This document shows, piece by piece, positions 1-63,921 of a DNA stretch of 64,000 nucleotides. This DNA comes from a virus. Under the pieces are notes generated by a model. That model ran no database searches, was not told the origin of the DNA, and worked only from the letters and a program-made list of their open reading frames with translations. Every line of letters starts with the position of its first letter. Within the stretch, counting starts at the first letter, position 1. The stretch lies in UHGV virus genome UHGV-1550212; one strand, written 5' to 3'. A program made the position numbers and the translations under genes.

Positions 1-646
1 CAATTACATCGTGGCCAATACCTGACATGGGCTCTGGCTCAGGTTCCGGTTCAGGTTCCGGTTCAGGTTCCGGTTCAGGCTCCGGTTCAGGTTCCGGTTC
101 AGGTTCCGGTTCAGGTTCCGGTTCCGGTTCCGGTTCAGGTTCCGGTTCAGGTTCCGGCTTGGGCTTTGATGAATAGTTAAACATCTTGTGAATCCATTTG
201 CACCACCATTTGTGACATGCATGTGCGCCATCATGATAATACGCTTGCAGCTCCATTGGAATTGCATGATATGCTTTGTCATGTGACATACCTTTGAATA
301 TTCGCAAGTACACATAGCACAAGCAATATGCAATGTAGTACATAAGCGGTGATGCAAGCAGCCACCACCAGCTAAGCACATTGCATGCTGCAAGCACAAT
401 AAGTACAAGCAACGTCGCAAGTGTTACAAAGATGAATTGCTTTGCATGCACAGCTTCATGCTTCAAGGTCTCAGAGTATCTGCTAAGTGTGTCATCATAT
501 GACTTATCACTTCTTATGAAGCACATTGCACACAACGACATTGCATAATAATGTGAAAATGGAATGCATGGCTGGTCGATGACAAGCATTGGTCCAGCAA
601 ACCACAGTCGCCACTGAGATTTATTTGGCAGTGTTGCAGTTTTCAT
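1..646 (-). CDS. HExxH metallopeptidase-like membrane protein with C-terminal (Glu-Pro)n linker; partial, 3' end beyond window
   Basis: ATG at 646..644 (minus), frame open to position 1, so absent from ORF track. Translation [19 protein letters not shown]...[24 protein letters not shown] (HEAVH = HExxH, then hydrophobic segments), ending in ~20 EP dipeptides. Confidence 0.55.
31..158 (-). repeat. Tandem GGTTCC/GGTTCA hexamer array (~21 units) encoding alternating Glu-Pro
   Basis: Direct reading; period 6/12 nt. The track ORF 4..420 (NLNRNL...) is the wrong frame of this array. Confidence 0.9.
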
Positions 647-7953: not shown

Positions 7954-8622
7954 ATGTCAACAAACAATCATGGCAAGCTCAGATTGCTTGAGCTCAAAGA
8001 AGCACAGCCATATGACACGCTCAAAATTGGCATTGACGTATCAGTAGATGCTACTGGCATGTGCATGATATTTGGCAAAACTGTTGCGCTGTTCAAATTT
8101 ACGCCGCACTTGCCACCAGAAGATGACAGTTCAGATGATGTGAATTTTGTGCAGTTCAACAAAATCTATCTGCAAACATCATCTTCTGCAAGAGAACGCT
8201 CAAAAATGCATACTCGACACACACTTGCAAACAAGATTGTTGACGCGATTGATATGTTCATGCAGGAAATTTGGCCGAATAGCCCAGCAAACATTCAAAT
8301 TGTTACAGAAGGGTCTGCATATGGCTATGCCGCACACAACTCTAACAGCTTGGTAGAACTTGCTGAATTTAGAAGCGTGATTTTAGAAAGAGTCTATCAT
8401 CGTTGGCCACTCGGCACGCATCTAAGTCTTGACGTTATTGCGCCAAAATCATTGAAGAAACATGCAACCGGTGACGGCAAAGCAGACAAACTAAAGATGA
8501 TTGAAGCTGCAATTGCTAAGTTGACACACATTCATTGGGCAGGCAAAATTGACGATGAATGCGATGCATTGCATCTTTGTCTGTATGAGCCATTAAGCAA
8601 TCCTGAACCACGACTTTGGTGA
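7954..8622 (+). CDS. RuvC-like Holliday junction resolvase
   Basis: LKIGIDVSVDATG (Asp motif I), IVTEGSAYGYA (catalytic Glu), DDECDALHLCLY (C-terminal Asp/His motif); 222 aa. Confidence 0.65.
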   Translation: MSTNNHGKLRLLELKEAQPYDTLKIGIDVSVDATGMCMIFGKTVALFKFTPHLPPEDDSSDDVNFVQFNKIYLQTSSSARERSKMHTRHTLANKIVDAIDMFMQEIWPNSPANIQIVTEGSAYGYAAHNSNSLVELAEFRSVILERVYHRWPLGTHLSLDVIAPKSLKKHATGDGKADKLKMIEAAIAKLTHIHWAGKIDDECDALHLCLYEPLSNPEPRLW

Positions 8623-10981: not shown

Positions 10982-12220
10982 CTATACACGTCTTGTCAAT
11001 TTGACATGACCGCAGTCATCTGCAAGCAGTTTAACATGACCGCAGTCATCTGCAAGCAGTTTAACATGACCGCAGTCATAAACTTTGACGAAGCCTGCAT
11101 CAATCATAGTTTGCTCATCATGATTGCAGTCAAGCACATGTGTATGAGTTTTCATATTGTACCAATGCAAGCCGATGTAAAAGTCAGTCTTGTGATATGC
11201 GTCAGTATATAATCGTGGGTCATCTATAGACAAATCAAGTTCGACGCAGTCAGCAGTCTGCAGTTGTTCTGTGTCAGTTAGCAATGATTTGACAAGCTTG
11301 ACTACAGCATCAAATGACATCCAATCAAATACAGTGATGCATCTATAGCCATGTTGCATAGCTGTGCAACATTTGTCAAAATGCGTAGTTGATGCAATTG
11401 GCTTGTTGACTGTAGAACGACCAGTAGCAAAATCAAATGCAAATGTGCTGTTATGCGTAAATGACGGATTGACATCAATTAGCAAATTGTCATATCGCAA
11501 ATCAAATGCGTAGCAATCTACGTCATGTTCATATTCAAAATCAACACCAGTATGCTCAAGTAGCATATCATGTAACAAGACGTTTGGCTTTGTAATGATT
11601 TTGCCATTTGCAAGTCTGCACTTCTGAGTTAAACAATGCCAAGGCACGCCATATCGTTCAAGTGTAGTGTTGCTAATCTTCTGCAAATTGCCAAAACCGC
11701 TGCCATAGCGTAATTGCTTTGTGACTGTTTGCTGTGCAACATTACCATTAGCATGACCAAACTTGTTGATGTTTGTTTGCTTGCGCTTAGCATTTGCAGT
11801 TGCAATATCAACAGATTCAAGTGACTCAAGAAATTTTGACATGTCGCCAAGCCCATTGCCATATAGTTGACGTTTAGTGTCAACAACTTTTGTCATGTTC
11901 CAGTGCTTGTAGCCATATCGAGCTTCTTTTGTCGCAAATGCTTTGTCATAGTTGCCAAAGCCTGCATGACCATATCGTTCAACTTTTGTTGCAGCAATTT
12001 TGTCTGAGACTTCTTTAAGCTGATGTTTGTATTCAACGCCAAACTTGCGCAAATTTGATATGCGAATGTTGAACACTCGTTTGACTTTTGTATGCGTAGA
12101 GCCTTTGTCAAGCTTTGCATATGGAATTTGTGCAAGTGCAGCGTCTCTTTCATCTTCAAGCTCTCTTATTCGAGCTTCAAGTGCATCACCAGCCAAAACT
12201 TCTATGCGTATAGTCTGCAT
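10982..12220 (-). CDS. Repeat/nuclease-like protein: coiled-coil N-terminus, 6-7 degenerate TK-x-(E/A)RYG repeats, C-terminal LLIDVNP..THNS domain; candidate free-standing homing endonuclease
   Basis: 412 aa; GDALEARIRELEDERD, repeated ...TKVERYG...TKEARYG...RQLYG...TLERYG; paralog of 16405..17604; C-terminal 30 aa is a triplicated decapeptide. Confidence 0.6.
   Translation of the reverse strand: MQTIRIEVLAGDALEARIRELEDERDAALAQIPYAKLDKGSTHTKVKRVFNIRISNLRKFGVEYKHQLKEVSDKIAATKVERYGHAGFGNYDKAFATKEARYGYKHWNMTKVVDTKRQLYGNGLGDMSKFLESLESVDIATANAKRKQTNINKFGHANGNVAQQTVTKQLRYGSGFGNLQKISNTTLERYGVPWHCLTQKCRLANGKIITKPNVLLHDMLLEHTGVDFEYEHDVDCYAFDLRYDNLLIDVNPSFTHNSTFAFDFATGRSTVNKPIASTTHFDKCCTAMQHGYRCITVFDWMSFDAVVKLVKSLLTDTEQLQTADCVELDLSIDDPRLYTDAYHKTDFYIGLHWYNMKTHTHVLDCNHDEQTMIDAGFVKVYDCGHVKLLADDCGHVKLLADDCGHVKLTRRV
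11004..11079 (-). repeat. Perfect 30-bp tandem repeat x2.5 at the 3' end of CDS 10982..12220
   Basis: Unit ACATGACCGCAGTCATCTGCAAGCAGTTTA; encodes DDCGHVKLLA x3; each unit carries inverted repeat ATGAC-CGCA-GTCAT. Confidence 0.9.
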
Positions 12221-18117: not shown

Positions 18118-18146
18118 ATTGTACAACGCTTTGTGCACATTTGCAA
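18118..18146 (-). promoter_or_regulatory. Sigma70-like promoter (sense: TTGCAA-N17-TACAAT)
   Basis: Direct reading; upstream of sigma-like gene. Confidence 0.45.
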
Positions 18147-22451: not shown

Positions 22452-22481
22452 ATTGTACTACACATGTTGCAATTTTTGCAA
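22452..22481 (-). promoter_or_regulatory. Sigma70-like promoter (TTGCAA-N18-TACAAT)
   Basis: Direct reading; upstream of polymerase C-terminal gene. Confidence 0.45.
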
Positions 22482-23433: not shown

Positions 23434-23462
23434 ATTGAACAACATTTGTTGACATTTTGCAA
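23434..23462 (-). promoter_or_regulatory. Sigma70-like promoter (TTGCAA-N17-TTCAAT)
   Basis: Direct reading; upstream of 22572..23399. Confidence 0.4.
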
Positions 23463-28350: not shown

Positions 28351-28379
28351 ATTGTACAACGCTAAGTGTCATTTTGCAC
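28351..28379 (-). promoter_or_regulatory. Sigma70-like promoter (GTGCAA-N17-TACAAT)
   Basis: Direct reading; upstream of 27738..28307. Confidence 0.45.
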
Positions 28380-30199: not shown

Positions 30200-30221
30200 A
30201 TGTTCGAATATATGAGGACAT
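30200..30221 (-). promoter_or_regulatory. Leader palindrome ATGTTCGAATATATGAGGACAT (copy 1 of 3)
   Basis: Between promoter 30237..30265 and start codon 30168; near-identical copies at 47427 and 54380. Confidence 0.5.
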
Positions 30222-30236
30222 ATATTATATATAGAT

Positions 30237-30265
30237 ATATTACAACACGCAAATCATTTTTGCAC
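30237..30265 (-). promoter_or_regulatory. Sigma70-like promoter (GTGCAA-N17-TAATAT)
   Basis: Direct reading. Confidence 0.4.
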
Positions 30266-43668: not shown

Positions 43669-43697
43669 ATATTACAACATTTGTTGTCAATTTGCAC
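43669..43697 (-). promoter_or_regulatory. Sigma70-like promoter (GTGCAA-N17-TAATAT)
   Basis: Direct reading. Confidence 0.4.
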
Positions 43698-43783: not shown

Positions 43784-44842
43784 TTACTGCTTCAAGCCTG
43801 TGAACAGTTCATACTTGAATGCAGGCCCTGCTGTGTAAGCCTCAAAGTAGAAGTCACCAATATTGATGCTTGCAATAGCGTCATCGACAGCTTTCTTGTA
43901 GCCTACACGTTCAATTGTCTGCTTATCGCATTTACGCCAATATGTGCTGTGCATCATAAGCGTGGGTGATGCAGCATAGTCTACTGCAAGCTGTTGTTTT
44001 GCAGTGTCAATGTGATGTTCATAGATGTGCACATCATTGCCAGTCCAAATGAACTCTCTTGCCACACAGTTAGTCAATGTTGCAACAATATGTGTAAGCA
44101 ATGCATATGATGCGATATTGATGGGCACACCAAGACACATGTCACAGCTACGCTGAGTAAGCGCACAGTCAAGCCACATGCTTGGTACTTGAGCAGAATC
44201 AAGGCATTCTGCAGAACCATCATGCACAAGCATGCTATCATTAGCAATCTGAATTCGTTCTTCAAGAGTCATTGGCTGACAATTGAACTGAAACAGCATA
44301 TGACATGGCGGCAATGCCATCTGAGACATTTGCGCAGGATTCCATGCAGACACGACTTTGTAGCGGCCAGTTGGATTGATGACAATGTCTTTAATGCAAG
44401 TTGCAAGTTGGTCAAATCCACTGTCATTGAAGTTGCGCCACTGATACCCATAGATAGGTCCGCAATCACCATACTCAGGTTTGCTGAATTTTGTGTTGTG
44501 CAGTTCTGTGCACCAAGTGTCAAAGTCGACATCTTCACCTGGATGCAGCTTTTGCCAATGACGATATGCATCCTGATGCCAGAACTTTGTAATGCCAAGC
44601 GTGTCAAGCGTTTTGACATTAGTGTCACCTGACATAAACCACAGAAGTTCTCCAATGACGCCTTTGACAAACATTCTCTTGGATGTCAACAGTGGAAAGC
44701 CTTTACGCAAATCAAATCGCATTGATTCTACAAACAATGACTTTGTGCGAGGCATGTTTTCACGAGCAGGTTCCTTAAATCTGCCATGCTCAATAACATT
44801 ATTAAGTACTCTCAAGTACTCAGTGTCGTGTTTGATATTCAT
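43784..44842 (-). CDS. thyA: Thymidylate synthase (ThyA family) with an internal insertion
   Basis: FPLLTSKRMFVKGVIGELLWFMSG, GPIYGYQWRNF, ALPPCHMLFQF, QRSCDMCLGVPINIASYALL; Asn at the pyrimidine-specificity position. Confidence 0.8.
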   Translation of the reverse strand: MNIKHDTEYLRVLNNVIEHGRFKEPARENMPRTKSLFVESMRFDLRKGFPLLTSKRMFVKGVIGELLWFMSGDTNVKTLDTLGITKFWHQDAYRHWQKLHPGEDVDFDTWCTELHNTKFSKPEYGDCGPIYGYQWRNFNDSGFDQLATCIKDIVINPTGRYKVVSAWNPAQMSQMALPPCHMLFQFNCQPMTLEERIQIANDSMLVHDGSAECLDSAQVPSMWLDCALTQRSCDMCLGVPINIASYALLTHIVATLTNCVAREFIWTGNDVHIYEHHIDTAKQQLAVDYAASPTLMMHSTYWRKCDKQTIERVGYKKAVDDAIASINIGDFYFEAYTAGPAFKYELFTGLKQ

Positions 44843-45464: not shown

Positions 45465-45529
45465 TTGTTTGAAATTAGTGAAGAGCACTTGCAGGCAGCT
45501 CAATCTCCTGACAGTACACTGTCATGCAA

Positions 45530-47407
45530 TCAAAAGCCTGCAAAGAAATCAGCATCAGCAGCATCTTGCTGAGGTGTCGACTCTTGTTCAATCACAAATC
45601 GACTGTGCAACTTTTGATTATGTTTTATGTATGGCATAATGCGCCGGATTGATTCGTCAATGACAAATGTTTCACACCAGTCATTTGCATGTCGAATGCC
45701 TCGACCAACTGACTGTACGAAGCTTTGATAGCACTTGTTGCGATACCAGCTTTCGTGATTTGCAGCCTTTGTTTTTACTACGATATCACCAAGTGACTGC
45801 CAAGGTAATTTTGCAACAATTTGACATCTACAACGATTGTCTGGTAAGTCAACGCCTTCAGTAATGCTAAAGCCTACAAGTACGTAGTTAGTGCCATCAG
45901 CAAGCATTGCAAGTTTATTTTGTTTGTCTTCAGCATTGACATATGTCAGCATTCTGCGTTTGTGCTTGCTGTTGTTGATGATATAGTTTGCAATGTCTCG
46001 TGTTGATGTGTGTATGATACAGTTGCAGTCATGTGTATCAAGAATGCTGTCAATCTTCTCAACAAGTCGAGGCATATTTGCTGCTTTATTCTTGTAGCTC
46101 AATGACAACGCAGGTTTGCACAGTACAATGGGCGATTTGCTAAAATCCCAATCAGGCTCCATGTAGAATGCTACATAGTTTTTGATGCCATTGAGCGTAG
46201 CAAATGTATCAATGTCACCAATTGTCGCTGACATCCACAATTGTGCATGCGTAGCATCACTATGATGCACCAGTGTATTTGCAAGAAGCTCATCATTGAC
46301 ACATTTGAATTGCAAGCTGTTTGTTGCAGCATCAAGTACTACAAGCATGTCACCAGGTGATTGTTCAGTTGCATCAAGCATTGTAATGATTGAATATGAC
46401 AACGTATCACAGCTGGCAACAAAGCGAATGAACGCTTTCTCAAATTGACCAAGCATTTTGCCTGAATCCTGAAGTTCACGTAGCTTTTCATATGCAGTAT
46501 GCAAAAAGTCTACAAGTTCTGACAACTGCTGTGCAAGCACTCTTGCTTCTGCTCGCATTGTTGCAATGTCATATTGTGTTGTTGCAAGCTTAATGACTGC
46601 TTTGACTTGTGCAAACACATTGTTGCGAAGTTCTACATATTTGTTCTGATTTTCAAGAGTCATGATACCTGCAATCAGTGACTCGGCCTTTGTGCAATTC
46701 TGAATGAATCGAGGACCAATTGACGTGTCAAGAAAGCCTGACAAAATGTCATCAATCTTATGGCACTCATCGAATATCGTCAATTCACGAGGCCCAAACA
46801 AGTTTTTGACGCAATTAACTTGTATCAACCAGTACGCATAGTTAAGCACTGTGCAATTTGCTGCGGCAGCCTTTTGACGAGTCTGCAAATATGCGCATTT
46901 AGGTCCACATGGCAATGCAAGAGCTTTCTTTGATGACAACCCGTCTTGTTGGCATTTGCCCATACTGAATGGCAGACCATTGACATGACAAATGTAATTG
47001 TCTCGACCTTTGAGCATTACACAACTTCTGAATGCTGAAGTAGTTGTGTCTGCTTTAGCATTGTTGTCGTACAAATATTGTTGAATGAACTTGTCATACT
47101 GGTCTTGCAGCAGTTTATCAGAAGTCAGCACATACGACTTGAAGAATGTTGCGCAAAACATCGCAACCACAGATTTTCCCGTTCCAGTCGCTCCCTGCAA
47201 TATGACATGTTGCCCATTTGCAATTGCTCGAATAATGTCGATGATTAGATGACGCTGAGTTGCATCAAAACGCGCTTGGTCCCACTTGCATGTCTTTGAT
47301 TGCGCAAGATATGCTGAGAATTTATCAATATGTGCTACAATAAGCTCATCAAGTTCTTGCTGAGATTGCTCTTCTGTCTTATGTTCTGCTGGTGTTAGTC
47401 TACCCAT
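45530..47407 (-). CDS. Superfamily-2 DEAH helicase with Fe-S cluster cysteines (DinG/XPD-like)
   Basis: ILQGATGTGKS (Walker A), IFDECHKIDD (DExH), Cys cluster ...SCVMLK..YICHV..KCQ...PCGPKC. Confidence 0.7.
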   Translation of the reverse strand: MGRLTPAEHKTEEQSQQELDELIVAHIDKFSAYLAQSKTCKWDQARFDATQRHLIIDIIRAIANGQHVILQGATGTGKSVVAMFCATFFKSYVLTSDKLLQDQYDKFIQQYLYDNNAKADTTTSAFRSCVMLKGRDNYICHVNGLPFSMGKCQQDGLSSKKALALPCGPKCAYLQTRQKAAAANCTVLNYAYWLIQVNCVKNLFGPRELTIFDECHKIDDILSGFLDTSIGPRFIQNCTKAESLIAGIMTLENQNKYVELRNNVFAQVKAVIKLATTQYDIATMRAEARVLAQQLSELVDFLHTAYEKLRELQDSGKMLGQFEKAFIRFVASCDTLSYSIITMLDATEQSPGDMLVVLDAATNSLQFKCVNDELLANTLVHHSDATHAQLWMSATIGDIDTFATLNGIKNYVAFYMEPDWDFSKSPIVLCKPALSLSYKNKAANMPRLVEKIDSILDTHDCNCIIHTSTRDIANYIINNSKHKRRMLTYVNAEDKQNKLAMLADGTNYVLVGFSITEGVDLPDNRCRCQIVAKLPWQSLGDIVVKTKAANHESWYRNKCYQSFVQSVGRGIRHANDWCETFVIDESIRRIMPYIKHNQKLHSRFVIEQESTPQQDAADADFFAGF

Positions 47408-47448
47408 TCTAAATGAGATTTAGATTATGTTCGAATATATGAGAACAT
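47408..47448 (-). promoter_or_regulatory. Leader element: inverted repeat TCTAAAT-GAG-ATTTAGA plus palindrome ATGTTCGAATATATGAGAACAT (copy 2)
   Basis: Immediately upstream of helicase ATG; near-identical to 54361..54402. Confidence 0.5.
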
Positions 47449-47465
47449 ATATTATTTGTAAAAAT

Positions 47466-47494
47466 ATAATACTACAATCAGCATACATTTGCAC
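47466..47494 (-). promoter_or_regulatory. Sigma70-like promoter (GTGCAA-N17-TATTAT)
   Basis: Direct reading. Confidence 0.4.
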
Positions 47495-47499
47495 TTTGA

Positions 47500-47529
47500 C
47501 ATAACTGATTGATACTCAATCAGTTATGA
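47500..47529. promoter_or_regulatory. 13-bp perfect inverted repeat CATAACTGATTGA-TACT-TCAATCAGTTATG upstream of helicase promoter
   Basis: Direct reading; two CTGTCAGCTGTC direct repeats follow at 47586 and 47625. Confidence 0.4.
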
Positions 47530-47649
47530 GTTTATAAAAGTTTTCAAAAGTAGGGTGTTGTTGTTTGAGTAGAGTGTTGCTGATTCTGTCAGCTGTCTTG
47601 TTTGCGTTATCGATTGCTTGCAAACTGTCAGCTGTCATAGAACATCACA

Positions 47650-47685
47650 AAAGCAAGCAGACTACAATTGCAGTCTGCTTGCTTT
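47650..47685 (-). terminator. Intrinsic terminator after 47706..48062
   Basis: AGCAAGCAGACT-loop-AGTCTGCTTGCT, 14-bp stem. Confidence 0.55.
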
Positions 47686-47705
47686 GACATAGTTGTAATG
47701 TGAGT

Positions 47706-48062
47706 CTACTTGCGCATAAACAATGCAGCAAGCCAATTCACTGGCTTGTCAATAAGCTGCTTCCACATAGTCCAATTGTACATGCCATGCGCAAACATTG
47801 TAAGAGCAAACAACAGCATGCACATTGATACAAGCCAATCAGCAAATGGCATATTGCCCCATCGAATGTACTCGAAAATGCCAACTTTAACAAGCTGAGC
47901 AAACAAAATGAGCATTACAGCCATTGCAAGTCGCATCCAGACTACATATTGCTGAGTCTTATCTACAAACTTTGCAATCAATGCTGGCACAAAGTACATA
48001 ATGTACGCAAACAGCAACAAGCAAAAGCCTGCATACAGCAGATTAGAAATAAAAGCTCCCAT
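47706..48062 (-). CDS. Multi-pass membrane protein (118 aa)
   Basis: ATG start; hydrophobic throughout. Confidence 0.55.
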   Translation of the reverse strand: MGAFISNLLYAGFCLLLFAYIMYFVPALIAKFVDKTQQYVVWMRLAMAVMLILFAQLVKVGIFEYIRWGNMPFADWLVSMCMLLFALTMFAHGMYNWTMWKQLIDKPVNWLAALFMRK

Positions 48063-48065
48063 ATT

Positions 48066-48947
48066 TTATCGTTTGAATTTGATGAAGTGTTCAGCATCAA
48101 GGCCCTCAAATATGTACGGGTCAAGAGTTTCCCAGAAGTTTGAGTATGTCGTTGTCTTTGCAATACTTGTCTGCTTTGACAAGTTCATGTTTGGATAGCC
48201 AAGCATTGCATAGTGTCGCTCATATATGTGCATTGACGTTGCATTATGCATATAAGCGCCAAGCTTAAGACCAAGTTCATTTGCGACAAGTTCTTGCAAC
48301 AAAGTGAATGCAAACTGGTCGTTACAGAAGCCCCAAATGACATCATTGCTTCGCATATATGTTGTCAAGTACAGCTTATCACCACGAACATTGAAAACAA
48401 GATTCAATGTGCACGGCATATCTTTGCCAGTGTAGTTTGCATATTGCGGCTCATAAATGCTAATAACTGCTCGTCTTGTGCATTCATGATTTCGCAAACG
48501 TTCAATGACATCTGCAATCTGCTTGTGCCAAATTGCGCCATACTGTGAATTGACATTGACGCCATCATCACTGAACTGCTTCCAACGAGGCAAATAACGT
48601 TCAATGCATTCAACTGCAGGATTGGCTGTCATATACCATGCAAATTCTGCAGCAGCATTGAGCTTTTTCCATGGTCGTACATCAATCTTGATTTGTCGCT
48701 GTGAAGGGTCCTGAATAACTACAGACACATTCAGCAATTCTTTTGTTCGAGTCACTGTTTGTGCATTGTTGCCCTTTGATTCTACAAACTCACCTCTACA
48801 ATGAAGTTCATACAAAATTGAGCGAAATGCTTCTGTTGCAGTGTTTTCAACGATTGTCGTCTGTTGATAGCATAAATTTGACGACAATGCTTCAGCATCA
48901 TTGTACTTTATGCTGTCATTGTCATAAGGTGAATTTTTTGTGTGCAT
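48066..48947 (-). CDS. dCMP hydroxymethylase-like ThyA-fold enzyme (T4 gp42-like)
   Basis: ...DMPCTLNLVF, YMRSNDVIWGFCNDQFAF, SMHIYERHY; Asp at the position where thymidylate synthases have Asn. Start at 48947 chosen; ATG at 49088 also possible (would overlap HAD gene). Confidence 0.65.
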   Translation of the reverse strand: MHTKNSPYDNDSIKYNDAEALSSNLCYQQTTIVENTATEAFRSILYELHCRGEFVESKGNNAQTVTRTKELLNVSVVIQDPSQRQIKIDVRPWKKLNAAAEFAWYMTANPAVECIERYLPRWKQFSDDGVNVNSQYGAIWHKQIADVIERLRNHECTRRAVISIYEPQYANYTGKDMPCTLNLVFNVRGDKLYLTTYMRSNDVIWGFCNDQFAFTLLQELVANELGLKLGAYMHNATSMHIYERHYAMLGYPNMNLSKQTSIAKTTTYSNFWETLDPYIFEGLDAEHFIKFKR

Positions 48948-48972
48948 ATTTTGGGATGTTTGTTTTTTATTA

Positions 48973-50067
48973 TCATACAACGATAGTATCTCGTTTGCAA
49001 TCTGTTTTGTCAAATATTGAACAACAATACGATGCAGATTGTTCTTTGATTTCAAGAGCTTCATCATTATCAAGTGATGAAATGCCATCTATGTATGCTT
49101 TTGCATTGCCAGCAATGTCATCATTTGTTAACAACGCTGCACGACGTTCAGTGCCAAAGAAGCCAAAGCACAATTGATGTTGCAGTGCTTCACGAGAAGT
49201 CTTGTCATCAAACTCTGATTTCATGTGTTGCATAAATTCGACAATATCATCAATGTCGCATTGAGTAAAGTCAATGCACAATTTATGCATGTACTTGAAT
49301 CGTTTGTAGTCTGTTGCAAGAATTTCTGGGTGCACAATGAACAACGTCTTTTTGCTGTCTATTGGATTTGCAATGACTGATGCTTGAACATAATCGACAA
49401 GCATACCAGATTCACGAAGTTGCTCAATTGTTTTGCCAAACACATGCCCAAGCGTGTCATCAAACCACTTCAAGTATGCTTCACTGTCTTCATCTTTTGA
49501 CGCGCCAACAATGTAAATCTCATTGACTCCAAGTGCTTTGAGACGAGTATCAGACAACATAGTATTCAATTGATGCTGCACGTACAGCATTGGGCTGCTA
49601 TGCAAAACCGTTTTAACAATCTCACAAGCAATGTCCATATATGCATAGTCAAGCTTTGCAGATTTTGACACATACACTGCACGTTGCTGCAATGGCTCAA
49701 TTGCCGAGCATGTAGTTACAAAGTTGCCAACACATTCTGCTACTGCAATGTCATGCAAGTCATCTGCAATGTACACAATACTTGACAAGTCATCAAATGT
49801 TTGAACAAGTTGCTGAAGCTTTGTTTTGTAATTGCAGAGCATCAATGACTTGATGTTGCAATTACTTAGCATTGTCTTGATGAGTCGTTGACCTGCTTCA
49901 GTGCTGTCACCAGAAATGACATGCACATCGCAGTCAAACCAGTTCAGCATGTCAATTGCATGCCGAACACCATATTGCATTTGTTTTGCAAACTTACCAG
50001 ATTCATTGAACAGCATTTCACCTGACATAATGCCGTCAAAGTCACATACGATTTGAAGTCTGTCCAT
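48973..50067 (-). CDS. HAD-superfamily phosphatase domain protein with C-terminal domain
   Basis: VCDFDGIM (motif I DxDG), VHVISGDS, IADDLHD. Confidence 0.55.
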   Translation of the reverse strand: MDRLQIVCDFDGIMSGEMLFNESGKFAKQMQYGVRHAIDMLNWFDCDVHVISGDSTEAGQRLIKTMLSNCNIKSLMLCNYKTKLQQLVQTFDDLSSIVYIADDLHDIAVAECVGNFVTTCSAIEPLQQRAVYVSKSAKLDYAYMDIACEIVKTVLHSSPMLYVQHQLNTMLSDTRLKALGVNEIYIVGASKDEDSEAYLKWFDDTLGHVFGKTIEQLRESGMLVDYVQASVIANPIDSKKTLFIVHPEILATDYKRFKYMHKLCIDFTQCDIDDIVEFMQHMKSEFDDKTSREALQHQLCFGFFGTERRAALLTNDDIAGNAKAYIDGISSLDNDEALEIKEQSASYCCSIFDKTDCKRDTIVV

Positions 50068-54358: not shown

Positions 54359-54360
54359 AT

Positions 54361-54402
54361 TCTAAATGAGATTTAGATTATGTTCGAAATATATGAGAAC
54401 AT
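54361..54402 (-). promoter_or_regulatory. Leader element (copy 3): TCTAAATGAGATTTAGA + ATGTTCGAAATATATGAGAACAT
   Basis: Immediately upstream of Mre11-Rad50 ATG. Confidence 0.5.
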
Positions 54403-54417
54403 ATATTATATGTTGAT

Positions 54418-54446
54418 ATTGTACAACATATGTTATCATTTTGCAA
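54418..54446 (-). promoter_or_regulatory. Sigma70-like promoter (TTGCAA-N17-TACAAT)
   Basis: Direct reading. Confidence 0.45.
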
Positions 54447-54783
54447 GCATTTTGATGATTGCATCTATCACAGTTTCACTGAGCAAGTAGTAGACAACGC
54501 TTATCAGCAATGATATCAGTACTGCAGCTGTGATAAATTGCAACGCATTCACAATTGCACGCACAAATGTTATCTGCGTGTTGTATGCAAGCACTATGCA
54601 GCATAGCACAATAATGACACACCAGACTACAATTGCATATGCAGGCATCAATGAATTTGTCCATATGCAGTACAATACAGTAATTAGCATCAAAAATGCT
54701 ATTGCTCTGATAACTGACACAATGATGTCTATGTAAGGCTTCATTGCACGCAAATGAACTCTTGGTTTATGTTGCTTCATCAT
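54436..54783 (-). CDS. Multi-pass membrane protein (115 aa)
   Basis: ATG start; hydrophobic. Confidence 0.55.
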   Translation of the reverse strand: MMKQHKPRVHLRAMKPYIDIIVSVIRAIAFLMLITVLYCIWTNSLMPAYAIVVWCVIIVLCCIVLAYNTQITFVRAIVNALQFITAAVLISLLISVVYYLLSETVIDAIIKMLAK

Positions 54784-56012
54784 GACTTTATGTACAATTC
54801 TGCAAGTTGTCTGGTGTACAGTCGTGGATTATGATATGCTTTCCAATACGCAGTAGACTTTATTGCAGCAAGAATTTCATCATAATGTTTGACTGCTTCT
54901 GCTACAACTTCATCAAGCACGCTCAAATCTTCTACACTGACAAGCAACCATTTTTCTACAATATCAATGAACTCCTGATTGCAATTGAAGCCATACTTGT
55001 AGTTGCAAGTATCAAGTACAAGTGGAATGCAATCATTTGTCAATGCTTCAAAAAATCTACGAAGACTGAAACAATTCTCATCATATGATGGAATGCTCAA
55101 TGTAAACTTGGCAGTCTTGATGAGTTGCAAATACTCTTCGTATGGAATCAGAGGACCATTGTGCTTCCATTGATTATTGTGTCGTCTTGTCGTGTACTTG
55201 AACAAAAACTTTGAATTGTCAAGTTCACAAAGATGGTCCATGCGTAAAATGTAGTTATAGCGGTCTCTTCTGTCAGGCCAACTGTCAGTCATCGCAAACA
55301 CAAAGTCTCTTTGCTTGTCACATTTTGCTGACATACCTCTATGCTGACACATGCAATACCAATATTGCTGCGATGGGCTGAACTCAAACTTTGAATGATG
55401 CTCACTTCCATCTTTGCATTGCTGAACATAAATGTTGTCAGGCACAAAGTGAAAATAAAAGTGTCGAATTTGCAAGTCATTGATGTAGTCAAGCTTATGC
55501 TGCAATGGGTCTTCACAGAAATTGTAACACTGAATATGCTTTGCTGCTGCGTACTCAGCAACTATGAACGTGCACATCCATTGCAATGCAATATCTTCAC
55601 TCTTCAAAAAGTTTACAAGCGGCTCATTTGGATGCGCTTTGCATTCATTGAACATTTTGTACCACTTGCATTGCTCCATATCGTACTTTGATACTGTATT
55701 GCCATTAAAGAACGACACAGTGTCAATTTTGAATGCATCAAGTTGTTTATGCACAATGTCAAGTGCTTGTGCGTATGTGATTGTCTCATCAGACATTATC
55801 TGCGCAAACTTGATTGGATGCGCATGCAAATTTGCGATAGTGTCTGCCGACATTTTACGCTGTGTGTGATAATCGACATACAAAAACTGACACTTGTCTG
55901 TAAGCAATTCAAGCATTGCTACAGATTTCCATCGAATTGCTTGAAAGAAATTGAAGTGTGCAGTTTGAAAGATGAGATGCGTAGGTTTATCAGAATGAGT
56001 CAAAGTTTGCAT
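54780..56012 (-). CDS. Glycosyltransferase-like protein (GT-B type), cassette 1
   Basis: C-terminal ...IPSYDENCFSLRRFFEALTNDCIPLV (E...EA..x.P motif); paralog of 59060..60616. Confidence 0.45.
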   Translation of the reverse strand: MQTLTHSDKPTHLIFQTAHFNFFQAIRWKSVAMLELLTDKCQFLYVDYHTQRKMSADTIANLHAHPIKFAQIMSDETITYAQALDIVHKQLDAFKIDTVSFFNGNTVSKYDMEQCKWYKMFNECKAHPNEPLVNFLKSEDIALQWMCTFIVAEYAAAKHIQCYNFCEDPLQHKLDYINDLQIRHFYFHFVPDNIYVQQCKDGSEHHSKFEFSPSQQYWYCMCQHRGMSAKCDKQRDFVFAMTDSWPDRRDRYNYILRMDHLCELDNSKFLFKYTTRRHNNQWKHNGPLIPYEEYLQLIKTAKFTLSIPSYDENCFSLRRFFEALTNDCIPLVLDTCNYKYGFNCNQEFIDIVEKWLLVSVEDLSVLDEVVAEAVKHYDEILAAIKSTAYWKAYHNPRLYTRQLAELYIKS

Positions 56013-57175
56013 GGACAAATGTCGCAGTTATGTTGATGTTTGTGTTTATTTATGAAGTCATATGTCACTGCAAAAAAGTGCTTTGCAATGTCATATCGAG
56101 TTTTCAAATATGCTGCTTGGCGTTCACAAAACGCTGCATAAATGTCTGGGTGTCGTTTGAATGCAGCAATGCGTTGCTGTACTTGTTCTGCAGAATGTAC
56201 ATATGACACTTTGCTCAAATATGCATCATCTGCAAATAATCGTCTGTCTTTGTCAACTGCGCAATCAACAAAAGTTGCAATTCGTGCAACAATGGCTTCA
56301 CCAACACGATTTGGCATCAACCCATATTGCTCATATTGTTGGTCACCGATAGCAATGTGCGCTGCTGCATATGACATTGCATATGGCACACTATAAAATG
56401 GCACACTAAAATCAAATGAGCAATTTGACTGTAGTAGTTGCGTTTGTGCATCAGACAATCTACTTGTCAAGTTGCCTGTATGTTTGTGCTCACCAAGAAA
56501 ACTTGAGCGACAACCTGAATCTACATAGTATCGAATGACTTTGTTTATGCGACTGTCAGATAGCATATGCCAATCTCTTGTAGCATATATCAAGTCTACT
56601 GTTTTTGCACCAATATGACGAGGCTCTATCGCAACATTGCTGTATGTTGGCAGCATGAACAATGGCAGCCATTTGACATTGTTGAACACTGAATGTTCAT
56701 TTGACAAATTCATGCACTGGCTAAGTTCAAGTACTGGCTCATCATACACGCCATGCAGTTCAACTCTGCCTGCATGCACAAAGTTGACACGCTTAAATGG
56801 AAATCGCATATCAGTGCAAACCGTCATTCTTGCTGCAGTAGACATTCGCCACATAGCATGCAGCTTAACAACTGCTTCGGCTTGAGGTCGAGGCAGCATA
56901 TTTAGCAAATCAATCCAGCCACCCCACAAAATCCAAACATCATTTGAACAGATGTTGAATTGCAAACTCAATATGTCTTCTACTGTTGCAGCAATGATGT
57001 CATGCCCATTGATGCTTGCAAGGTGCTTTCGTTGATTTGCAATAAGAATGACTTGACTGAACGGAGACTCTGGAAATGACACAAGCGCCTTTGCAAACAA
57101 CACGGGTTCTTGTGATACCAAGTTGTTTGAGTATGGGTCGATTATGCAATCAAGCTTGTGTATGAAAAGTCTCAT
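56000..57175 (-). CDS. Possible DNA glycosyltransferase, cassette 1 partner
   Basis: ...ILWGGWID...TVCTDMRFPF; paralog of 60613..61779; resemblance to T4 beta-glucosyltransferase is from memory and weak. Confidence 0.4.
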   Translation of the reverse strand: MRLFIHKLDCIIDPYSNNLVSQEPVLFAKALVSFPESPFSQVILIANQRKHLASINGHDIIAATVEDILSLQFNICSNDVWILWGGWIDLLNMLPRPQAEAVVKLHAMWRMSTAARMTVCTDMRFPFKRVNFVHAGRVELHGVYDEPVLELSQCMNLSNEHSVFNNVKWLPLFMLPTYSNVAIEPRHIGAKTVDLIYATRDWHMLSDSRINKVIRYYVDSGCRSSFLGEHKHTGNLTSRLSDAQTQLLQSNCSFDFSVPFYSVPYAMSYAAAHIAIGDQQYEQYGLMPNRVGEAIVARIATFVDCAVDKDRRLFADDAYLSKVSYVHSAEQVQQRIAAFKRHPDIYAAFCERQAAYLKTRYDIAKHFFAVTYDFINKHKHQHNCDICPCKL

Positions 57176-58164: not shown

Positions 58165-58193
58165 ATTGTACAACATGCAAAATGCATTTGCAT
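58165..58193 (-). promoter_or_regulatory. Sigma70-like promoter (ATGCAA-N17-TACAAT)
   Basis: Direct reading; proximal of a tandem pair. Confidence 0.4.
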
Positions 58194-58211
58194 TTTGATA
58201 CAACATGCATT

Positions 58212-58240
58212 TTGATACAACATATATTGTCATTTTGCAC
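58212..58240 (-). promoter_or_regulatory. Sigma70-like promoter (GTGCAA-N17-TATCAA)
   Basis: Direct reading; distal of tandem pair. Confidence 0.35.
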
Positions 58241-59039: not shown

Positions 59040-59068
59040 ACAGTACAACGTAGTTATGCTCATTGCAC
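59040..59068 (-). promoter_or_regulatory. Weak sigma70-like promoter (GTGCAA-N17-TACTGT)
   Basis: Direct reading. Confidence 0.3.
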
Positions 59069-60616
59069 TTCTACGAATGGCTCTTTCAACACAAAGCTGT
59101 CACCATTGCAACATGCGGCTGAGCCATCGTCTGCATCAAGTGCACATGACATATCAGACTTGCAGAACTTGCAATATAAACATGACCATGCATGACTCAT
59201 GAAGTTGTTTGCTTCACAAATTGCGCAACGCTCATGCATAAGTGCATTGTCGCAATTATCACAAGACTTCTTGATTGGCACAGTTTTGTTGATGTATGCA
59301 AGATGCAATGCAATATCATACACAAAGTCACCCGTATATTGCTGAATGAAATCAGTATGCCACAACTCTTTTAACAATTGTGCATGTCTATATGGCTGAA
59401 CAATGTCTTCAAGATGCTGCAAGTCATCATCGCTAACCATGAGCTTCTTAATGACAAATTGTTTGAACTGTGGCCATCTGTCAAACATATAGAGTTTGCA
59501 TGAGTTGTGCACAAGTGGAACACAGCCAAGCACAATGCTTTCACAGAATCTACGCAAACTAAAACAGTTTGCATCATATGACGGCACAATCAATGTGAAT
59601 CTGCTATGCTTGATGAGTTCAAGGTATGTGTCATATGGCAGTAGCTTATCTGACAATTGCTGTTGTTGTTTGTCTCTGCTGAAAAATCTGAACACAATAC
59701 CCTTGTCAATTGCATCTTGATTGTGCAGATGCATGAGTTTGTTGATGAGTTCTGTGCGTTCAGTTTTGTCTCGCCAAGTATTCGTCAATGCAAATGCAAA
59801 ATTCAGTCGCTTGTCATCAAACGTCGCTTCAATATCATTCCAAGTTTTGTCATGCAAATACCAGTATTGCTGTGATGGGCACCATCCATAATATGCAATA
59901 GCATCTTGTTCTGCTGTAACGTCATACACATATGCAGAATTGTATTCAAGGCCAAGCCTTTTGACGTTGTTGCAGTCATGAAAGTACCAATGCTGCACTT
60001 TGAATATCTTTGATGCACTGAATGCGCTTTCATATGGCCCTGAATAGCGATAGTCAATGTAATTGAGCTTGTGCTGCAATGGGTCTTCGACAAAGTTGTT
60101 TATGACTGTGCCTTGTTGTTTGCCCTTAGTCTTGCGAGCATTCAATGCAACATTGTATTGCATGATGACTGACAGCATCTCATACACTACATACATGAGT
60201 GCTTTGTAGACTGAGCCTGCTGCGTCAATTAGTGGCAAATCACGTTTGACTGATGTAGCGCCAAATGTCTTGCAATATGCAGAAAATGTGTCAAGTTCTG
60301 CTTGCTGAAATGAATTGCATGCACCATTGAATATGTTGAATGTTGCAATGTAGCTCATATTGCAAGATGTCATTGACATATCAAGACGCTTCATAATGTC
60401 GACAATGCGACATTGAGCAAAATCTGACACATCAACATATTTGACATGATGGCCTGATGTAGTCAAGCCATCTGCGACATCTTTCATCTGTGGCACAAAG
60501 CCTACAACAATGAATAAGTCATCTTTGTTTGCTCGTTCAAACATTGCTGCACTTTTCCAAGTCAATGAATTGAAAAAGTCTATGTAGCCAGTTTGAGTGA
60601 TTATATGCGTTCTCAT
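59060..60616 (-). CDS. Glycosyltransferase-like protein (GT-B type), cassette 2
   Basis: ...VPSYDANCFSLRRFCESIVLGCVPLV; N-terminus also parallels 54780..56012. Confidence 0.45.
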   Translation of the reverse strand: MRTHIITQTGYIDFFNSLTWKSAAMFERANKDDLFIVVGFVPQMKDVADGLTTSGHHVKYVDVSDFAQCRIVDIMKRLDMSMTSCNMSYIATFNIFNGACNSFQQAELDTFSAYCKTFGATSVKRDLPLIDAAGSVYKALMYVVYEMLSVIMQYNVALNARKTKGKQQGTVINNFVEDPLQHKLNYIDYRYSGPYESAFSASKIFKVQHWYFHDCNNVKRLGLEYNSAYVYDVTAEQDAIAYYGWCPSQQYWYLHDKTWNDIEATFDDKRLNFAFALTNTWRDKTERTELINKLMHLHNQDAIDKGIVFRFFSRDKQQQQLSDKLLPYDTYLELIKHSRFTLIVPSYDANCFSLRRFCESIVLGCVPLVHNSCKLYMFDRWPQFKQFVIKKLMVSDDDLQHLEDIVQPYRHAQLLKELWHTDFIQQYTGDFVYDIALHLAYINKTVPIKKSCDNCDNALMHERCAICEANNFMSHAWSCLYCKFCKSDMSCALDADDGSAACCNGDSFVLKEPFVEVQ

Positions 60617-63892: not shown

Positions 63893-63921
63893 ATTGTACA
63901 ACATGTATTGAGCTTTTGCAC
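63893..63921 (-). promoter_or_regulatory. Sigma70-like promoter (GTGCAA-N17-TACAAT), proximal
   Basis: Direct reading. Confidence 0.45.

Follow-up and report, generated by a model that had tools for sequence, protein, structure and literature searches.

The spacer upstream of the helicase gene is best read as an ordinary boundary between two co-oriented transcription units of the minus strand, stretched by about 150 nt that are specific to one lineage; we put the probability of this reading at about 75%. The window, a stretch of 64,000 nt, is part of the genome of an uncultivated phage of ~175 kb, and nearly all of its long open reading frames (ORFs) lie on the minus strand. Because the genes all lie on that strand, the spacer has to be read from right to left, and its terminator precedes the other elements (Table 1). 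Four steps would then follow one another. First, a hairpin with its U-tract (T1) would terminate an operon that runs from a promoter at 54445, through an SbcCD-like gene, to a gene of 118 codons. Second, transcription that continued would enter the ~150 nt of this lineage, with a 40-codon ORF that contains both 12-nt repeats in frame. Third, a palindrome (T2) would most likely form a hairpin, in RNA or in DNA, by which read-through is stopped or buffered just before the next promoter, or would be the vestige of a terminator. Fourth, a promoter of the form GTGCAA-17-TATTAT, one of a 10-member family, would start the helicase operon.

The main value of these results is for annotation. They propose an operon structure for the DNA-metabolism module of an uncultivated ~175-kb phage, define the promoter consensus and the typical terminator of that phage, mark the slot ahead of the helicase as a hot-spot where small ORFs come and go, and remove one candidate origin from consideration. 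If the ORF or the palindrome were functional, this would be a modest lineage-specific addition and not a new principle.

Table 1. Positions of the spacer elements and flanking genes, in transcription order
Feature	Position	Strand	Description
118-aa gene	47706..48062	-	ORF; last gene of the upstream operon
Intergenic spacer	47408-47705		298 nt, between two minus-strand genes (118-aa gene and helicase)
T1, predicted intrinsic terminator	47643..47685	-	ends the operon from the SbcCD-like gene to the 118-aa gene; stem-loop 47685-47650 (arms 47650-47667 / 47668-47685), then TTTTGTG
Antisense ORF	47565-47687	+	hydrophobic 40-residue peptide
Candidate 40-codon ORF	47516..47638	-	MTADSLQAIDNANKTADRISNTLLKQQHPTFENFYKLITD, then stop; both repeats in the same frame, 13 codons apart
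Direct repeat, copy 1 in transcription order	47625..47636		immediately after the ATG of the ORF; encodes TADS
Direct repeat, copy 2 in transcription order	47586..47597		CTGTCAGCTGTC on the plus strand, GACAGCTGACAG on the minus strand; encodes T-A-D-R
Imperfect tandem pair	47549-47566 and 47568-47585		18-19 nt
T2, perfect palindrome	47500..47528		inverted repeat of 13 bp, 3-nt loop; arms 47500-47512 / 47516-47528
Predicted promoter of the helicase operon	47466..47494	-	GTGCAA, 17 nt, TATTAT; TGTAG abuts the -10
Leader	47408..47459	-	~52 nt; inverted repeats forming two small hairpins
Leader hairpin 1	47449-47426	-	TATGTTC-N10-GAACATA
Leader hairpin 2	47424-47408	-	TCTAAAT-ctc-ATTTAGA; abuts the helicase ATG
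DinG/XPD-type SF2 DNA helicase gene	45530..47407	-	625 aa; first gene of the downstream operon

Flanking genes, terminator and promoter

The phage occurs in public metagenome assemblies and in assemblies of sequencing runs, including contigs of 175-176 kb (IMGVR_UViG_3300045988_149023 and ERZ27261301 k119_106340); ERR1137001 is another data set that contains it. The helicase is also encoded on the 175.6-kb IMG/VR contig, with 98% amino-acid identity, and on the 176-kb ENA contig the spacer is identical. A megablast search with 45500-49100 returned no close DNA match among deposited phages. The close relatives of the window haplotype are three identical contigs (L011-13) and a 98% sister haplotype represented by L001 and L009. 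In L002-L004 the helicase is 45% identical, and relatives at about this level include human-gut contigs. The comparisons below are therefore between two haplotypes and a set of distant relatives, among which no intermediate relative carries the insert.

On the upstream side, the SbcCD-like nuclease gene is followed by three more ORFs, one of them a thymidylate-synthase homologue, and then by the 118-aa gene. Its product, judged by eye, appears to be a multi-pass hydrophobic membrane protein; it has no Pfam or PHROG match, and an identical copy is present on 4 other contigs. Homologous genes of 118 aa (L008) and 120 aa (L002) occupy the equivalent location in those relatives. The helicase matches the Pfam families Helicase_C_2, DEAD_2 and ResIII and PHROG 2488 (E = 4e-89), and is ~30% identical to helicases of Chryseobacterium, Tenacibaculum and Sphingomonas jumbo phages. 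Downstream of it lie a 227-aa ORF and a second thymidylate-synthase homologue.

The first element past the 118-aa gene is T1, which on the minus strand reads AAAGCAAGCAGACTGCAATTGTAGTCTGCTTGCTTT followed by TGTG, with the stem beginning 20 nt past the stop codon. It folds at -28.0 kcal/mol (z = -6.8) and has the same build of A-tract, stem and T-tract as the other terminators of the window. T1 combines what is expected of an intrinsic terminator, a stable stem-loop with a T-tract, with a conserved position after the stop codon of a co-oriented gene. A simple terminator scanner missed it because its apex lies outside the 3-8 nt loop limit of that program. In the five close relatives (L001, L009 and L011-13) T1 is identical, and the 15 nt that precede it have diverged. 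Farther away, L002-4 have a hairpin after the 120-aa homologue, GCAAGCA...TGCTTGTTTTTGTG, whose outer stem and tail are those of T1 and whose inner stem and loop differ; an equivalent hairpin is also present in L008. This persistence in close relatives, together with the equivalent in the 45% relatives, argues that T1 is the ancestral terminator of the operon from the SbcCD-like to the 118-aa gene, and we infer that transcription of the upstream operon ends there. The original prediction had also taken 47650-47685 for a terminator, which agrees with this assignment; the unit it would serve is the upstream operon of the minus strand.

T1 and the real promoter region have the strings TATGTCAAAG and ATTGTAGT in common. 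By our calculation, about 0.7 repeated 8-mers and about 0.04 repeated 10-mers are expected by chance within 300 nt, so that the 8-mer is no more than chance and the 10-mer is marginal. T1 was considered as a hidden promoter and rejected, since an alignment with the family would place TCTGCT at the -10.

The promoter assignment draws on a family. The pattern TGCAAA-N9-13-GTWGTWNWAT has 10 matches in the window, against 0.03 expected, each of them on the minus strand and ahead of a gene. The copy before the helicase has its hexamers within the usual 16-18 nt of each other and A2 and T6 in the -10, and to these features are added its recurrence and its conservation. In L008 and L015 a pattern match, and in L014 the motif as read by eye, stands before the helicase or before the ORF ahead of the helicase. 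Transcription of the helicase operon probably starts from this promoter. A generic sigma-70 scan did not list it because the -35 box matches TTGACA at 3 of 6 positions. Another sigma-70 candidate, TTTACA-17-TATATT (47462-47434), overlaps the leader and is not conserved at two other copies of the leader; the family promoter was preferred.

Between the promoter and the helicase ATG lies a short structured leader. The SbcCD-like gene has a near-identical leader at 54359-54417, and at a third promoter the first palindrome is found again (~30200-30225); L009 is without 27 nt of the leader. The shared structured leader suggests that the helicase operon may be co-regulated with the SbcCD operon. The spacer had originally been proposed to be the control region of the helicase gene, and in this respect the proposal was correct. 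Three things about the spacer had gone unremarked: the strand of the genes, the position of the repeats in frame within a 40-codon ORF, and the imperfect tandem pair.

The lineage-specific segment and its candidate ORF

What sets this junction apart is its length. Here T1 and the promoter are separated by 155-156 nt; at three other junctions of the window the distance from the terminator to the TGCAAA box is 8, 19 and ~42 nt, and the terminator-promoter gap in L008, L002, L014 and L015 is 0 to ~35 nt. The two direct repeats, the 13-bp palindrome and the imperfect tandem pair all lie in the extra ~150 nt, which are confined to the window haplotype, with the identical L011-13, and the 98% sister haplotype (L001, L009). 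In more distant relatives the terminator abuts the promoter or unrelated ORFs occupy the slot: a 75-aa ORF in L008, with its own promoter copy and a terminator ahead of it; a 322-aa ORF with a smaller one, read as about 87 aa, in L002; and a 148-aa ORF in L015. L014 has neither the 118-aa gene nor any insert. No source for the segment was found in the window or the relatives (blastn-short, tblastn), nor in IMG/VR, and among deposited phages blastn matched the insert only over 27-32 nt, by chance. Searches of the spacer against Rfam (E up to 10) and for tRNAs found nothing.

The 12-nt direct repeats are present as originally described, CTGTCAGCTGTC at 47586-47597 and 47625-47636, 39 nt from start to start and each with a CAGCTG core. 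As a statistical matter they are less striking than they look. About 1.6 exact 12-mers repeated within 100 nt are expected by chance per 64 kb, and the window has about 9, several within genes; given these numbers, one pair taken from a scan of the whole window is only weakly remarkable. Neither the 12-mer nor the half-site of the palindrome recurs above chance elsewhere in the window. More telling is the fate of the two copies in the sister haplotype. Copy 2 is conserved in L001 and L009, and copy 1 there reads GACGGCTGATAG, with 2 changes in 12 nt, both at synonymous third positions, and without its CAGCTG core. The synonymous alteration of copy 1 and the loss of CAGCTG mean that the repeats are not maintained as DNA or RNA elements, and this is the main argument against reading them as iterons or as paired operator sites. 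Nor is a structure that joins them preserved: a long hairpin pairing the two CAGCTG repeats was rejected (z = -2.0, not significant; both stems broken in L001), and the inner stem between the repeats, GTTTGC/GCAAAC, is broken in L001 and L009. An excess of the 10-mer CTTTGACATA, counted with one mismatch in the window, is spread through coding sequence and was taken as an effect of codon composition.

If the repeats are not DNA elements, they may simply be codons. One explanation, tentative but the best placed of the alternatives, is that a small accessory gene makes up the ~150-nt segment, an insert without a promoter that resembles the 'morons' of other phages and whose ORF is translated from transcripts that read through T1. 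In such a gene T2 would be the 3' hairpin and the repeats would merely encode a T-A-D-(S/R) motif, two corollaries that we regard with the same reserve. This explanation is compatible with the operon boundary and adds a function for the insert.

Several observations favour coding by the ORF, whose peptide includes MTADSLQAIDNANK.... Against L001, six of seven substitutions fall at codon position 3, and five are synonymous against 2-3 non-synonymous, in a sample of 7-8; pS is 0.256 and pN 0.038 (Fisher p = 0.006), with 0.17 and 0.010 for the helicase. In a comparison of frame models by codon log-likelihood, the sense frame leads the other five by 11 bits or more; the codon-usage score is above that of 97% of spurious ORFs and within the range of real genes. 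A version of 35 aa has been called as a gene in public data (P0041), and small ORFs occupy the same slot in relatives.

Several observations weigh in the other direction. The genome's start codons lie in A-rich sequence without a Shine-Dalgarno sequence, but the 20 nt upstream of this ATG are T/G-rich with 1 A, compared with 3-13 (mostly 7-12) elsewhere, which makes this the least A-rich context of the 48 ORF starts listed. The ATG stands 11 nt past a strong terminator, and the ORF lacks its own promoter. At codon 33, L001 and L009 have an insertion of 1 nt that replaces the last 7 residues and cuts the ORF to 35 aa. The choice among synonymous codons is ~2 SD below that of real genes, gene callers made no call on the identical contigs, and an exhaustive profile search found no homologues outside the lineage; a borderline match (E = 9e-4) to a low-complexity coiled-coil repeat protein was judged compositional. 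Even the substitution pattern is less decisive than it appears. When an extra change in L009 is included, the periodicity weakens to roughly p = 0.06 by our calculation, and the plus-strand ORF at 47565-47687 shares the third positions and has the same 5:2 ratio, so that the coding strand cannot be assigned from it. On balance we would grant the minus-strand ORF clearly less than even odds, on the order of one in three, of being a real gene.

A further feature of the segment is its uneven divergence. Between the haplotypes 6.4% of the spacer has changed, compared with 17% of synonymous sites in the helicase (pS 0.17), and the 56 nt from 47579 to 47524 have no substitution at all. Part of this conservation would be expected if the ORF is coding, but the frameshift lies inside the stretch. 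Further constraint at the nucleotide level is possible, for example through upstream promoter sequences or the CAACACYCTACT pair. CAACACYCTACT occurs at two places in the window (2 matches, 0.41 expected), which form a tandem pair of this string at 47549-47579. That the whole ~150 nt is a functional mini-cassette, providing a read-through peptide of 40 residues (or, less likely, the hydrophobic antisense one) or an operator made of T2 and CAACACYCTACT, seems to us unlikely.

The palindrome T2 and the question of an origin

T2 is a perfect inverted repeat, as first described, and ends at 47528, the base before the end point of 47529 given earlier. It overlaps the stop codon of the ORF and ends 5 nt upstream of the -35 box. 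Its fold has -15.6 kcal/mol (z = -5.1), and its stem is AT-rich, with G-C at 4 of 13 pairs. Markov shuffling of the window yielded a mean of 0 perfect inverted repeats of at least 13 bp with a loop of at most 10 nt. Stems of at least 11 bp occur at 13 loci of the unshuffled window, nearly all of which are intergenic terminators. T2 is unique in the window, and in IMG/VR it was found solely in the same phage.

Unlike every other terminator in the window, T2 has no T-tract, its stem being followed by TCAAAGTGC on the minus strand and by AGTTTATAAAAG on the plus strand. A role as a terminator is doubtful for this reason, and we have not filed T2 as a canonical one. Its place in the spacer nevertheless corresponds to that of terminators in relatives: local alignment puts it on the terminator hairpin of L008, directly upstream of GTGCAAAT, and L014 and L015 also have a terminator hairpin at its position. 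Most probably, T2 would be a buffer against read-through or a degenerate, vestigial terminator.

The loop of T2 reads GTA in the window and its exact reverse complement, TAC, in L001 and L009, which is a signature of hairpin-mediated template switching. The flip shows that T2 pairs with itself and says nothing of its function. One arm in these two relatives also has T in place of C, which leaves the minus-strand RNA paired through G.U, and the L001 version still folds, at -13.1 kcal/mol.

A perfect 13-bp palindrome near -55 is also what the site of an activator or a repressor would be expected to look like. T2, possibly together with the CAACACYCTACT pair (47549-47579), could accordingly be imagined as the operator of a dimeric phage or host protein that acts on the helicase promoter. 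We consider this improbable, and equally so its consequence, activation or repression from about -55, which would be genuine factor-dependent regulation of the kind the original prediction suggested. The geometry would suit it, because T2 spans about -41 to -69 from the predicted start and lacks the T-tract of a terminator. So would the pattern of change between the haplotypes: 12 of the 13 arm positions are unchanged and the loop can flip, 47579-47524 is unsubstituted in haplotypes that differ at 17% of synonymous sites, and CAACACYCTACT is confined to its two places. But the half-site of T2 occurs nowhere else in the window or in IMG/VR, which leaves no regulon, and the other 9 promoters of the family have no comparable palindrome upstream. 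T2 is missing from all relatives beyond the 98% haplotypes, although the promoter is conserved there. Finally, the C-to-T change in the arm breaks the symmetry of the DNA and keeps the pairing of the RNA, which favours a hairpin over a protein site.

The density of symmetric elements had been taken to indicate regulation by multiple factors, or an origin-like region next to the helicase. The former is unsupported, since the repeats are not conserved as DNA and the segment that holds them is missing from distant relatives; a lack of conservation in relatives had been named as part of what would refute the idea, and neither the repeats nor the 13-bp palindrome is present in any relative beyond the 98% haplotypes. 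The latter idea, in which the 12-mers would be iterons, the palindromes cruciforms and the promoter the source of a primer or an R-loop, is very improbable. The region does lie inside a DNA-metabolism module, and both of its strands are highly structured (z = -5 to -6); the loop flip indicates a palindrome prone to intrastrand pairing or template switching in DNA, and the promoter and leader (47400-47550) are locally the most AT-rich stretch, at 23-25% GC. However, the AT-rich part is explained by the family promoter and a leader that is also present at two other genes. The repeats number two copies. The sister haplotype has a mutated version of one, and neither occurs in L008, L002, L014 or L015; no further copy of the 12-mer with at most 2 mismatches lies nearby, and TRF found no array in the spacer. 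Cumulative GC skew, a check named at the outset, falls steadily through the region with no inflection at 47.5 kb, within a window that covers 64 kb of the ~175-kb genome. The adjacent helicase is DinG/XPD-like and neither an initiator nor a replicative helicase, and no initiator-like gene is adjacent. The region therefore has neither a repeat array, nor conservation of its repeats as DNA, nor a skew or an otherwise unexplained AT-rich signature, and an iteron origin at this place is not supported. At T4 or T7 origins a promoter supplies the primer or R-loop, and nothing specific seems to point to a promoter-dependent origin of this type here. We do not regard the region as an origin.

Relation to known systems

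The elements of the spacer each recall a known system, and the differences are as informative as the likenesses. Iteron origins are built on an array of direct repeats, usually 3 or more, that binds an initiator. In lambda ori, four iterons of 18-19 bp and an AT-rich region lie inside gene O, and plasmid oriV is also of the iteron type. The spacer resembles these in having short direct repeats by an AT-rich stretch among replication genes. It differs in that the repeats are two copies 39 nt apart, lie in frame in an ORF, are mutated at one copy in a 98% relative and are absent from other relatives, and in that there is no initiator gene beside them and no skew signal.

The flipped loop of T2 has its counterpart in the inversion of hairpin loops. 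Template switching is said to occur at quasi-palindromes, and small inversions have reportedly been described in chloroplast spacers. As in such cases, the loop of T2 reads GTA in one haplotype and TAC in the other while the arms stay. Here, though, the polymorphism is one between two metagenomic haplotypes, and the mechanism would be deduced from the pattern.

Morons are, reportedly, accessory genes that sit between conserved phage genes, and they typically have a promoter and a terminator of their own. The slot between the 118-aa gene and the helicase, which holds unrelated small ORFs across relatives, is much like a site for such genes, and the 75-aa ORF of L008, with a terminator in front and its own promoter copy, is like a moron itself. 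In contrast, the candidate 40-codon ORF lacks a dedicated promoter, and its start codon stands in a context poorly suited to initiation.

The closest likeness is to the terminator-promoter junctions between operons. As at those, one unit closes, after its last gene, with a GC-containing stem-loop and a T-tract, and a -35 and a -10 with a spacing of 17 nt precede the next. The promoter departs from those of sigma-70 in its -35, which in this phage is (G/T)TGCAA and not TTGACA, and in a conserved TGTTG that abuts the -10. The junction itself is unusual in its gap of 156 nt, where 0-42 is found elsewhere, in the additional palindrome without a T-tract, and in the 40-codon ORF. The module of terminator and promoter that frames these additions recurs at several junctions of the genome and in all relatives examined.

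Promoter family and shared leader

The promoter that precedes the DinG/XPD-type helicase gene belongs to a family with 10 copies in the window, where 0.03 would be expected, and all of them lie on the minus strand. The consensus, (G/T)TGCAAA(A) ... TGTTG-TAcAAT(AT) with a spacing of 17 nt, has a -35 box that departs from TTGACA, and the motif is kept among relatives down to ~45% helicase identity. Shine-Dalgarno sequences are absent at the gene starts of this phage. Separately, we notice that at 58165-58240 a 17-nt unit (ATGTTGTATCAAAATGC, minus strand) is repeated in tandem directly upstream of a family promoter, giving stacked -10-like and -35-like boxes.

Behind their promoters, the helicase operon and the SbcCD-like operon share a near-identical leader of ~50 nt. 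It contains a TATGTTC-N10-GAACATA palindrome and a TCTAAAT-ctc-ATTTAGA hairpin, the latter abutting the ATG. With one arm change, the TATGTTC palindrome recurs at ~30200-30225 (minus strand), after the promoter at 30237; in one relative, L009, 27 nt of the leader are missing. The leader looks like a putative common operator or 5'-UTR element of DNA-metabolism operons.

Possible origin and coding capacity of the extra segment

The 10-mer CTTTGACATA (minus strand, TATGTCAAAG) is present at both 47682-47691 and 47494-47503 in the spacer between the 118-aa gene and the helicase gene. One copy lies just before the terminator hairpin T1 and the other just before the -35 box, and together they bracket T1, the candidate 40-codon minus-strand ORF and the 13-bp palindrome T2. 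The extra segment may have arisen by duplication or illegitimate recombination, with the pair as its relic; chance recurrence is equally possible, with ~0.04 such 10-mer repeats expected inside 300 nt.

The loop of T2 (47513-47515) differs from its counterpart in the 98% sister haplotype (L001, 2893-2895) by an exact inversion, GTA versus TAC, with the arms unchanged. A template-switch or flip event mediated by a hairpin would fit this difference.

An antisense reading frame of 40 codons is unbroken in both haplotypes, with five synonymous and two conservative changes. It has no ATG, its codon usage is better matched by a non-coding frame, and the hydrophobicity of its peptide is that expected of a G/T-rich antisense strand. 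Among relatives, the slot between the thymidylate-synthase-like/118-aa genes and the helicase is a hot spot of gene turnover.

Coordinates of features in the window and, where a relative is named, in that relative
Feature	Location	Strand	Description
Leader, helicase operon	47408-47460	minus	near-identical sequence
Leader, SbcCD-like operon	54359-54417	minus	near-identical sequence
Antisense 40-codon ORF	47565-47687	plus	TTG start; hydrophobic peptide SRVLLILSAVLFALSIACKLSAVIEHHKSKQTTIAVCLL
Predicted family promoters 1-5	18118-18145, 22452-22480, 23434-23461, 28351-28378, 30237-30264	minus	motif match
Predicted family promoters 6-10	43669-43696, 47466-47493, 54418-54445, 58165-58192, 63893-63920	minus	motif match
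Slot, L008	3624-4000		75-aa ORF with own promoter
Slot, L002	1650-3000		322-aa ORF (internal NEIEHY tandem repeat) and smaller ORF
Slot, L015	2392-3000		148-aa ORF
Slot, L014	2896-3000		empty; 118-aa gene also absent
Thymidylate-synthase-family genes and weak GT47-like matches	43784-44842, 48066-49088, 54780-56018, 59060-60616		
Near-perfect tandem repeat, intra-ORF	39-157		12-nt unit, 9.9 copies
Near-perfect tandem repeat, intra-ORF	11000-11079		30-nt unit, 2.7 copies
RuvC-like endonuclease gene	7954-8622	plus	only clear plus-strand gene of the window

Composition and gene content of the window

Across the window, CAGCTG is scarcer than expected (19 sites versus 37), which suggests a general avoidance of palindromes or restriction sites; the direct repeats in the spacer account for two of these 19 sites, which form their cores. 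The RuvC-like gene, inside a 1.26-kb gap separating minus-strand genes, is a local strand switch distant from the helicase spacer.

The window also contains two thymidylate-synthase-family genes, the second of which is divergent and possibly a pyrimidine hydroxymethylase, together with two weak matches to GT47-like glycosyltransferases in the same module. In combination, the thymidylate-synthase-family pair and the GT47-like matches hint at modified DNA bases.
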